DNA of 31,594 nucleotides. Origin: a virus. Where the stretch lies: the UHGV virus genome UHGV-0304743. The stretch is one strand, 5' to 3'. The translations under genes and the position numbers were made by a program. This document shows positions 9,968 to 11,684 of the stretch, in pieces. How positions within the stretch are numbered: position 1 is the stretch's first letter; each line of letters opens with the position of its first letter. Below the pieces are notes generated by a model, which had not been told where the DNA came from, made no database searches, and worked only from the letters and a program-made list of their open reading frames with translations.

Positions 9968-10432
9968 TTACTTTGGATATACACTGTCAAGATAAATGTC
10001 AGCTTCCATTCTACGTCTGTTTTTCAGGCCGTTTGAAGTGACCTTCTTACCTTTTACTGTAACCTTGTTCCACCACTGCATAGCTTCTGCACAACCGACC
10101 TTATTACCAGCATTGTGGCGCTTGATAAATGTAGAGTCCTGCATAGCTGTGATACCAATGTTGTATGTTTCACTTACAAGTGCATCAAACTCGTTCTGAG
10201 AAGTTGGAACCTTGATGGCTTTGTTCACTGCTGCAACGAACTTTTCAACATCTGCAAGAAGATACTGTTCAGCTTGTTCAGCGGTAATCTTCATACCCAT
10301 CTTAACAGGCTTCCCACCAATACGGATTGTACCATACCCGATTGTAGGGATTCCGGCAGAGTCTTCGTAAGCCTCAAGCTTAAGACCTTCAAAGAACTTA
10401 ATAGCTTCTAAACCTTTTCTTGAGAGTTGCAT
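9968..10432 (-). CDS. Endolysin, phage lysozyme (glycoside hydrolase family 24, T4 E-like)
   Basis: N-terminal motif EGLKLEAYEDSAGIPTIGYG matches the GH24 lysozyme catalytic signature (E...D...T); size 154 aa. Confidence 0.85.
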   Translation of the reverse strand: MQLSRKGLEAIKFFEGLKLEAYEDSAGIPTIGYGTIRIGGKPVKMGMKITAEQAEQYLLADVEKFVAAVNKAIKVPTSQNEFDALVSETYNIGITAMQDSTFIKRHNAGNKVGCAEAMQWWNKVTVKGKKVTSNGLKNRRRMEADIYLDSVYPK

Positions 10433-11316
10433 TATGCCTCCCCTGCTGGGTTAACAGTAACTGTTGCTGCATTAGATGTTACAGAGCCACCTGCACCAGT
10501 AACTACACAGGTGTAGCTTCCTGCATCAGCAGCGGTTGCACCTTCTTTGGTGTAAGTTGCAGCAGTTGCGTCTGGGATGACTTCCTCACCTTTCTTCCAC
10601 TGATAACCTGTCGCACCTGTTGCCACAACATTCAGTGTTAAGGTCTCACCTTCAGTGATTTCTTGATTGGTTGGTTGCTGAGTGATTACTGGAAGTGCAT
10701 TCACAGTAACTGTTGCTGCATCTGAGGTAACACTTGTTCCACCCTCTCCAGATACAACACAAGTGTATGAACCAGCGTCAGAAGGTGCTACTGACTGTTT
10801 TGTGTAAGTTGCAGAATTGGCACTAGGGATGTCCTCACCATCCTTTTTCCATTGATATCCAGTGGCATTAGTTGCAATGACGCTTAGGGTAAGTGTACCC
10901 CCTTCATTTACTGTTTGATTGGTTGGTTGCTGAGTGATTGTTGGTGGTGTGATGACATCTTTCAACTTAGCATTCAACATTGAGAACGGCTTAACTCTTG
11001 CCAACCATTCACAGTAAATTGTGTCAACATCTTTACCATTGATGATTGCATACTGCAAATCCATGAAGAAATCAGCAGTTCTCATCTGTGCACCAACACT
11101 GTAAAGCAATTCATCACTAAATGGAACTTTGTAGTCTGGTTTGTAGTCAAACTTCTCAACTTCTGCAATATCAGCTTCAGGCCAATATGAACTATAGGTA
11201 AGTGGTAAAATAGCCTCTTGATATGTTCTAAAATCATATCTCTTACCAGCCTTTACGTTTGCAATGAAGCCCTTCACAAACTCTTTAAAGTCTGGGTAAG
11301 TCTTTGCTTTAATCAT
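10432..11316 (-). CDS. Protein with N-terminal domain paralogous to the downstream ORF plus two tandem Ig-like domains
   Basis: Two ~85-aa internal repeats (ITQQPTNQ...GYQWKK...SYTCVV.G...ATVTVN), an Ig-like signature; N-terminal ~120 aa resembles the 11313-11684 product. Confidence 0.65.
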   Translation of the reverse strand: MIKAKTYPDFKEFVKGFIANVKAGKRYDFRTYQEAILPLTYSSYWPEADIAEVEKFDYKPDYKVPFSDELLYSVGAQMRTADFFMDLQYAIINGKDVDTIYCEWLARVKPFSMLNAKLKDVITPPTITQQPTNQTVNEGGTLTLSVIATNATGYQWKKDGEDIPSANSATYTKQSVAPSDAGSYTCVVSGEGGTSVTSDAATVTVNALPVITQQPTNQEITEGETLTLNVVATGATGYQWKKGEEVIPDATAATYTKEGATAADAGSYTCVVTGAGGSVTSNAATVTVNPAGEA

Positions 11317-11684
11317 TTCTTTTTAGCCTCTAAATGTGCGTTTAGTCTAAAATAACCTTTGTGGTGTGGAGATACATCACCAACAACAATGCCTTTAACC
11401 TTATAACCTTTACCAATTACATACTGAATATCCATAAGGAATCTCCCAAGACCAACAATATGGAACATTGGATATAATAGGTTCTCAGAGTCTGGAATAT
11501 TGATTTCAGGTTTGTAGGTGTGTTGTTTGCTTGTTGGTGTAATATCTTCTTCAGGCCATTTACTGAGTCTCCATGTCAAAGGTGTTGGGATAACATCATT
11601 AAGGTTGTACCTTTCACCATTTTGCACGGAATTGATATAGGATTGTAGGAAGCAATAAAAGTCTTTTGCACTCTTAGCTTTCAT
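11313..11684 (-). CDS. hypothetical protein, paralog of N-terminal domain of the 10432-11316 product
   Basis: Shared motifs by eye (MxKAK..DF, ERY, YKP, LLY, FxMDxQYxI). Confidence 0.55.
   Translation of the reverse strand: MKAKSAKDFYCFLQSYINSVQNGERYNLNDVIPTPLTWRLSKWPEEDITPTSKQHTYKPEINIPDSENLLYPMFHIVGLGRFLMDIQYVIGKGYKVKGIVVGDVSPHHKGYFRLNAHLEAKKK

Follow-up and report, generated by a model that had tools for sequence, protein, structure and literature searches.

A stand-alone capsid-binding-domain paralogue beside the gene for a Hoc-like hexamer decoration protein in a Felix O1-like phage

The stretch of DNA analysed here (the window) comprises 31,594 nucleotides of the UHGV virus genome UHGV-0304743. 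On its minus strand, three consecutive open reading frames (ORFs) with overlapping stop and start codons lie between two hairpins (Table 1). They encode a small protein, which we call S, a larger protein with two immunoglobulin (Ig)-like domains, which we call L, and a GH24 lysozyme. Over the 1.7-kb region, identity is 98.5% with the Salmonella phages FSL SP-010 and SP-012 and 93-97% with dozens of Felixounavirus genomes, and by this sequence identity the window is Felixounavirus. We read the region, with good confidence, as the decoration-protein cassette of a Felix O1-like myophage set between two terminator hairpins. L would be its Hoc-like hexamer decoration protein, the counterpart of Hex-Dec and gp20 in related phages, and its adjacency to the endolysin would reflect synteny without a link to lysis. 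S is a paralogue of the capsid-binding domain (CapBD) of L, and its role can be proposed only tentatively.

Table 1. Features of the decoration-protein cassette and of its capsid partner in the window.
Feature	Coordinates	Strand	Description and basis
Intrinsic terminator	9931-9958	minus	AGGCTCC-TTCT-GGAGCCT followed by TTTTTATTTT; closes the three-gene cassette; terminator scan
GH24 endolysin	9968-10432	minus	154 aa; PF00959 E 6.7e-41; phrog_7 endolysin
L, whole gene	10432-11316	minus	294 aa; Hex-Dec / gp20 orthologue; Felix O1 ORF36
L, Ig-like domain 2	10447-10695	minus	residues ~208-290; Pfam Ig_2 and I-set over residues 209-288
L, Ig-like domain 1	10696-10947	minus	residues ~124-207; Pfam Ig_3, Ig_2 and I-set; repeat comparison
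L, CapBD	10951-11316	minus	residues 1-122, with Arg79 and Arg107; phmmer to solved chains, from residue 1
S	11313-11684	minus	123 aa; stand-alone Hex-Dec CapBD paralogue, no Ig domain; Felix O1 ORF37, Sf14 gp21, VpaE1 gp40
S ribosome-binding site	11691-11695	minus	AAGGA; downstream of the hairpin, ahead of S
Terminator-like hairpin	11696-11722	minus	GGGGC-ATCA-GCCCC with T-rich tail; between the upstream 196-aa gene and S; read from sequence
Major capsid protein (MCP)	26701-27807	plus	binding partner of L; phmmer to 9ncf_A and 9c2d_A

L aligned over residues 1-290 with chain S of the solved entries 9NCF ('Immunoglobulin-like domain protein'; phmmer E 1.6e-247) and 9C2D / 9C3A ('putative tail protein'; phmmer E 2.4e-165). 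The former is the capsid of Escherichia phage Bas63, in which chain S was named Hex-Dec (PMC12609058), and 9C2D is the icosahedral capsid of Shigella phage Sf14, in which chain S is gp20 (PMC11821841). As read from the phmmer alignments, the CapBD of L differs from that of Bas63 Hex-Dec at 4 of 118 positions (~97% identical) and from that of Sf14 gp20 at 14 of 118 (~88% identical). Hex-Dec and gp20 are Hoc-like monomers that bind through their N-terminal ~118 residues at the centres of the pentamer-adjacent hexamers of a T=9 capsid. Their Ig-like domains are too flexible to be resolved by cryo-electron microscopy (cryo-EM), and the other hexamers carry no decoration density in either phage (PMC12609058, PMC11821841).

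The contact residues are preserved on both sides of the interface. Arg79 and Arg107 of Sf14 gp20 form salt bridges to Asp221 of the MCP (PMC11821841). In our family alignment, Arg79 is present in all 46 long forms and Arg107 in 98% of them, and L has both. The MCP of the window, whose gene runs on the opposite strand ~15 kb from L, matched 9ncf_A (phmmer E 1.9e-248) and 9c2d_A (3.7e-234) with R220-D221 visible in the alignment; it is nearly identical to the Bas63 MCP chain and retains Asp221. The Felix O1 orthologue of L, gp36 (ORF36; 31,610 Da), was detected in purified virions, and the computed mass of L is 31,534 Da. Every feature of an Ounavirinae Hex-Dec/gp20 that can be tested from sequence, namely CapBD homology, both arginines, the Ig domains and Asp221 of the MCP, is found for L. 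L is in this respect already known from the two cryo-EM structures of 2025.

Extended from the orthologues to the window phage, these structures would place L as a monomer on the pentamer-adjacent hexamers. Its N-terminal domain of ~120 residues would form a helical plug that fills the acidic pore of each of the 60 hexamers next to pentamers in a T=9 head and is anchored through Arg79 and Arg107 to Asp221 of the MCP, and the two Ig-like domains would extend from the surface as a flexible fibre. In line with the structural papers and their analogy to T4 Hoc, this fibre probably serves in weak adhesion to surfaces or cells or in the control of aggregation. A cell-surface-binding accessory had been among the suggestions of the initial annotation, and binding or adhesion by the Ig domains is plausible on the same analogy.

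The two Ig-like repeats of L are 71% identical (E 2e-38), have a DNA period of 249 nt, and match Pfam models above the curated cut-offs (Ig_3, 7.4e-23; Ig_2, 1.9e-19; I-set, 1.8e-16). The length of L orthologues varies from 210 residues in EC6 to 294 in the window, 372 in Sf14, 377 in HY02 and 460 in Bas63. The repeat identity and the 249-nt period are consistent with gain and loss of Ig domains by unequal recombination between tandem repeats. Variation in Ig number has already been reported in the Bas63 and Sf14 papers, and the former predicts one to four Ig domains per protein across the genus (PMC12609058, PMC11821841). In Shigella phage Z31 (L006, 2498-3070), which is without S, L is split into a 134-residue ORF that holds only the CapBD and a 55-residue ORF; the split may reflect a natural decoration protein without Ig domains or a frameshift introduced by sequencing.

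S and L are paralogous through their N-terminal domain of ~120 residues. BLASTP aligned S 1-99 with L 2-100 (E 4e-16, 38% identity over 101 residues), 29 columns stay invariant once the two families are aligned together, and S by itself matched the solved chains 9NCF_S and 9C2D_S (phmmer E 9.8e-12 and 4.1e-11). The initial annotation had described such a paralogous pair, two Ig-like repeats in the larger protein and a GH24 lysozyme gene downstream, and all three descriptions hold, with the ORFs at the coordinates in Table 1 and with similarities too strong to be accidental. Its list of shared motifs needs correction: YKP, LLY and F.MD.QY.I are common to both proteins, MxKAK occurs in L only (S reads MKAK), and ERY is GERY in S and GKRY in L. 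S ends at residue 123, with no C-terminal Ig display domain and no Pfam match; it was assigned to phrog_4463, labelled 'unknown function'. Pfam, NCBIfam and PADLOC hold no model for the CapBD, for S or for the 196-residue protein encoded upstream.

A first AlphaFold2 run for S with 24 close orthologues gave an unusable model (pLDDT, the predicted local distance difference test, 46). A deep alignment that included the L family and distant clusters gave a model with pLDDT 80.6 and a predicted template-modelling (TM) score of 0.79, in which S is predicted to adopt the full capsid-binding fold. Its only Protein Data Bank matches were 9c2d_S (TM 0.76/0.78) and 9ncf_S (TM 0.74/0.75), over the full lengths, and only Ounavirinae proteins were matched in BFVD.

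Comparison of the two families identified 35 positions conserved in both and 43 that are conserved within each family yet differ between S and L. The densest blocks of difference are S72-79 (PMFHIVGL in S vs SvGAQMRT in L) and S103-113, the segments that carry Arg79 and Arg107 in L. Among 48 S sequences, the Arg79 site is occupied by Gly in 47, and the Arg107 site by Gln, His and Arg in 42, 4 and 2, respectively. In S, the capsid-contact segments have been remodelled to another sequence, one that is conserved in its turn. An inversion of charge was considered as the mechanism, given that the S of the window has an isoelectric point of 9.3 vs 5.5 for the CapBD. It was dropped because the family-wide difference in net charge is modest (median +1.5 for S and -0.5 for L) and the ranges overlap.

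Of 253 phage records from Felixounavirus, Mooglevirus and Suspvirus, ~233 have an intact S gene immediately ahead of L, and both Sf14 (gp21) and Bas63 encode S. A metagenomic contig of 87 kb has the tandem as well, with S and L 45% and 58% identical to the window copies, which brings the lineages with the tandem to four. Across 24 orthologues, 61 of the 123 S columns are invariant. Over ten genomes, the median ratio of nonsynonymous to synonymous substitution rates (dN/dS) is 0.13 for S, 0.034 for the CapBD of L and 0.074 for the endolysin, with dS up to ~1.3. By these sequence measures S is under purifying selection, and by dN/dS it evolves ~4 times faster than the CapBD of L. All stand-alone S forms group in one clade of a neighbour-joining tree, which argues for a single old duplication; given the long S branch, the tree leaves undecided whether the duplication came before or after the split from the Erwinia phages. 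S and L orthologues ~97% identical to Felixounavirus genes also occur in GU169904.1 (Staphylococcus phage SA1, 147 kb; 143190-143558), which suggests that this record is a chimeric or contaminated assembly.

In the semi-quantitative reverse-transcription PCR time course of Felix O1, S (ORF37) peaks late, at 60 min, alongside L (ORF36). S is missing from the list of structural proteins detected in Felix O1 virions, and as far as the main text of the VpaE1 report indicates, gp40 is not among its 22 virion proteins. A tryptic digest of S would give 7 usable peptides covering 102 of 123 residues, and DFYCFLQSYINSVQNGER, YNLNDVIPTPLTWR, FLMDIQYVIGK and GIVVGDVSPHHK are suited to a targeted search by mass spectrometry (MS). 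S was not modelled in the capsid structures of Sf14 or Bas63 (PMC11821841, PMC12609058). The Sf14 paper with its supplement and the Bas63 paper make no mention of a paralogue, of Sf14 gp21 or of the neighbours of gp20/Hex-Dec (PMC11821841, PMC12609058), and a literature search found no other paper dealing with S.

S is a pseudogene in 19 records (fBSPA4, fKMPT1, REP5-12, Tf, FGS030, mio, EcF-vB, SP116 (two), Z31, P54 and CECAV_041). In fBSPA4 and Z31, the two remnants that were aligned, the start codon is lost, 1-bp frameshifts and an internal deletion of ~217 bp have occurred, and only the 3' end with the ribosome-binding region of L is preserved. All 19 records match the deletion junction as one contiguous piece of ~221 nt, and the remnants are 92-100% identical to one another, which points to a single loss of S and to later diversification of that lineage on E. 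coli, Salmonella and Shigella. L is intact in the S-less fBSPA4 (94.9% identical) and therefore does not need S.

For L, two other readings were weighed. The initial annotation had placed the Ig-domain gene in a non-structural operon beside the endolysin and proposed a lysis-associated accessory. In such a reading, L, S or both would work with the GH24 endolysin in cell-wall targeting or lysis timing, and the arrangement of the genes is in its favour: the L stop codon overlaps the endolysin start inside one terminator-bounded cassette, and a CapBD gene adjoins the endolysin throughout Ounavirinae. However, orthologues of L were built into capsid maps and gp36 was detected in virions, so L is structural, and the general rule invoked in the same annotation, that Ig-like domains of phages usually sit on virion surface proteins, applies to it. 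The Felix O1 time course groups ORF36 and ORF37 with the genes for portal, tail and fibres, at a maximum of 60 min, and sets them apart from ORF35 (endolysin) and ORF38, which reach theirs at 25 min. An annotated terminator separates the CapBD gene of phiEa21-4 from its endolysin gene, the L-equivalent and endolysin genes do not overlap in Sf14, Moogle and SUSP2, and no lysis-related domain was found in S or L with Pfam, PHROGs and NCBIfam. The order ORF38-like gene, CapBD gene, GH24 lysozyme gene recurs in Mooglevirus, Suspvirus, Erwinia phage phiEa21-4 and two uncultured lineages; because it recurs across Ounavirinae lineages, the endolysin adjacency is, on comparative gene order, inherited synteny without a functional lysis link. 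We hold a role of L or S in lysis to be very unlikely. The initial annotation had also stated that its proposal would fall if the shared domain belonged to a well-known family of unrelated function and both proteins were absent from related phages; the domain does match a characterised capsid-binding domain unrelated to lysis, whereas both proteins are widespread in related phages. The GenBank reading, in which L and by similarity S are tail proteins, goes back to the Felix O1 paper, which named gp36 'major tail protein'. Most records and phrog_3995, which L matches at full length and which is labelled 'tail protein', copy that label, and the Ig domains of L do resemble those on some major tail proteins. 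In the cryo-EM structures of Sf14 and Bas63, however, sheath, tube and fibres are other gene products and Hex-Dec/gp20 is on the capsid; in the window, the sheath and tube candidates lie elsewhere, on the plus strand at 29733-31547. The Bas63 authors, who note that the Hex-Dec gene lies more than 10 kb outside the structural module, explicitly call the tail annotation wrong (PMC12609058). The tail reading is almost certainly mistaken, and the hexamer decoration protein is retained as the identity of L.

For S, the account that we put forward tentatively is a dispensable late accessory that engages capsid hexamers in a state or position unused by L, on the procapsid or transiently, and that is not retained on the mature virion. 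S would be an old tandem duplicate that kept only the capsid-binding fold and that turns this ancestral fold and its face to another target or hexamer state. It might instead be a second hexamer decoration, placed on the 20 icosahedral 3-fold hexamers that L cannot bind and hidden by symmetry averaging and by its lack of an Ig fibre. The shared predicted fold, contact segments that are remodelled yet conserved as an altered target geometry would require, the displacement of Asp221 in the 3-fold hexamers of Sf14 (PMC11821841), and the late peak, the overlap with the L start and the conserved sequence of S would suit this placement. It is nevertheless distinctly unlikely, given that Bas63 has no density on the other hexamers and Sf14 agrees (PMC12609058, PMC11821841), that S, despite 7 good tryptic peptides, is missing from the virion proteomes of Felix O1 and, as far as the text of its report indicates, of VpaE1 while smaller or rarer proteins were detected, and that a lineage without S persists. 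Recruitment to a role away from the capsid, for instance as a host-factor ligand or as a decoy that diverts a defence system able to recognise the decoration protein, with the ancestral fold merely retained, would explain the loss of both anchoring arginines, the 43 family-specific positions, the absence from virions, the ~4-fold faster evolution and the dispensability in culture. We consider such a role unlikely: S matched no defence or anti-defence model in PADLOC, it peaks late and not early, and the strict S-L tandem with its stop-start overlap fits a morphogenetic role better. That S is a functionless duplication relic on its way to loss is suggested by its pseudogenes in 19 records without obvious cost and is nonetheless very improbable, since S has a dN/dS of 0.13 at dS values up to ~1.3 with 61 of 123 columns invariant, is intact in ~233 of 253 records and in a lineage that is only 45% identical, and decays fast once inactivated. 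A bolder form of the hexamer-ligand account, which we regard as doubtful, is that S is a second, cryptic ligand of capsid hexamers, either the occupant of the 20 three-fold hexamers or a late, non-incorporated binder of hexamer centres during assembly that governs where or when L is installed. If true, S would be the first display-less paralogue with its own conserved binding surface in a Hoc-like decoration system, none having been found in our searches.

Several points weigh against the interpretation given here. The capsid location of L comes from orthologues and not from the window phage, and an adhesion function of its Ig domains has only the T4 Hoc analogy behind it. For S, all evidence on location is negative: the older virion proteomes fall short of full coverage, the MS table for Sf14 is limited to assigned structural proteins, and the density of a monomer on a 3-fold axis would be blurred by icosahedral averaging. 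Because L-family sequences were in the alignment behind the S model, the fold match is not wholly separate evidence from the sequence homology. The transcript time course is semi-quantitative, and in it the endolysin peaks before S and L, with its gene downstream of theirs in the apparent unit.

The boundaries and junctions of the cassette were compared with those of relatives. The hairpin upstream of S keeps its stem unchanged with a variable loop in the five phages compared, and its Felix O1 homologue is annotated as the rho-independent terminator t38 (PMC3185647); a simple terminator scan of the window did not flag it. The terminator that closes the cassette corresponds to the Felix O1 rho-independent terminator t35 (PMC3185647). 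At the S/L junction, ATGA, the S stop overlaps the L start, an overlap kept in all 11 lineages checked, and at the L/endolysin junction, TAATG, the L stop overlaps the endolysin start. In Felix O1 the endolysin gene lies downstream of S and L in the same terminator-bounded unit, yet it peaks at 25 min vs 60 min. One shared transcript would hardly give such timing, which suggests an unmapped internal promoter, unequal stability or assay noise. A sigma-70 promoter scan of the window was no better than shuffles, and a shared late-promoter-like motif, TATTTATAAGGA, upstream of S was rejected, as it occurs once in the window and is not above chance. A programmed -1 frameshift that would fuse S to L was also considered. 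The S gene ends in GCT AAA AAG AAA TGA (11313-11330), whose AAA AAG is similar to the -1 slippery site of dnaX, and ribosomes slipping there by -1 would continue in the L frame. Neither Sf14 and Moogle (GCT AAG AAA TGA) nor SUSP2 and L012 have the motif, and the mass of Felix O1 gp36 is that of the unfused protein, for which reasons the fusion was rejected; the slippery-like motif is probably incidental.

Residues 13-143 of the endolysin align to positions 2-125 of the 125 in the PF00959 profile. The 196-residue protein at 11732-12322 (minus strand; Felix O1 ORF38, phrog_4034) is encoded immediately upstream of the CapBD gene in every Ounavirinae lineage examined. An ORF38-like gene is in the same position in S-less lineages, as gp39 in phiEa21-4 and as a metagenomic 185-residue homologue with a faint Phage_Inh_N match, and this protein may be functionally linked to the decoration gene. 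The plus strand carries a typical array of 25 tRNA genes (14976-20557) as well as terminase, Mu-type portal and S49 prohead protease genes. Directly upstream of the array lies a 471-residue DUF2828/DUF7788 protein gene (13395-14810, plus strand), called 'RNA-binding protein' in the RefSeq records of relatives; it is preceded by a DUF5681 protein gene (12942-13313), and its pairing with the tRNA array is conserved in relatives. A 125-residue ORF at 26290-26667 (plus strand), without a Pfam match, occupies the position of the beta-tulip Dec gene and was assigned by position.

With regard to L, our analysis adds nothing new, the widespread 'tail protein' mis-annotation having been corrected by the two cryo-EM papers of 2025, and adjacency to a lysin gene is no evidence of a lysis function. 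S is a modest lead, as a candidate to explain the bare state of one hexamer class in the T=9 capsid or the regulation of decoration, and the S-less phages are natural knock-outs for comparison. A stand-alone capsid-binding module and its natural variants would help to define what hexamer targeting needs, which is relevant to Hoc-like phage display.

Among known systems, the nearest is Hex-Dec of Bas63 (Escherichia phage JohannRWettstein), which has the same position on the endolysin side, a near-identical MCP partner and an S gene in the same genome; it carries four Ig-like domains in 460 residues vs two in the 294 of L (PMC12609058). Sf14 gp20, from the sister genus Mooglevirus, shares R79 and R107, binds pentamer-adjacent hexamers as a monomer and was identified in the MS analysis (PMC11821841), but has three Ig domains in 372 residues and is separated from the lysin gene by 8 nt, whereas the genes overlap in the window. 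Like L, T4 Hoc is a monomeric, non-essential decoration of hexamer centres that joins a small capsid-binding domain to several Ig-like domains in a row. The domains come in the opposite order, with the CapBD C-terminal in Hoc and N-terminal in L, and the Bas63 CapBD is larger than that of Hoc, topologically distinct and pseudo-C2 symmetric (PMC12609058). The similarity of L to 'Hoc-like' PHROGs is confined to the Ig region, residues ~122-292. L works like T4 Hoc and is not a Hoc homologue outside the Ig domains. No CapBD-only paralogue of T4 Hoc was found in the two structural papers or in our searches.

The CapBD family itself is small. A word-indexed search with the CapBD alone returned only relatives at least 84% identical, and an exhaustive profile search of 1.84 billion representatives was needed to recover the family, which comprised only 12 clusters. 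In these, the CapBD is fused to I-set Ig domains, to Big_2 or to a Lys/Ser-rich tail, or stands alone. Erwinia phage phiEa21-4 (Kolesnikvirus) gp38 has a homologous CapBD, ~36% identical to L, and the same gene order to the endolysin, but carries Big_2 instead of I-set Ig, and the Erwinia phages have this single gene and no S paralogue. The metagenomic contig SRR33913824_1108 (L015, 4001-4462) encodes a single CapBD protein of 153 residues, again flanked by an ORF38-like gene and a GH24 lysozyme gene, with a Lys/Ser-rich, probably disordered C-terminal tail in place of Ig. Because the anchoring arginines and the display domain are absent from S, we place it in this family as a display-less member and not as a decoration protein; on its sequence, S appears to be a new member of the capsid-binding-domain family and a paralogue so far undescribed.

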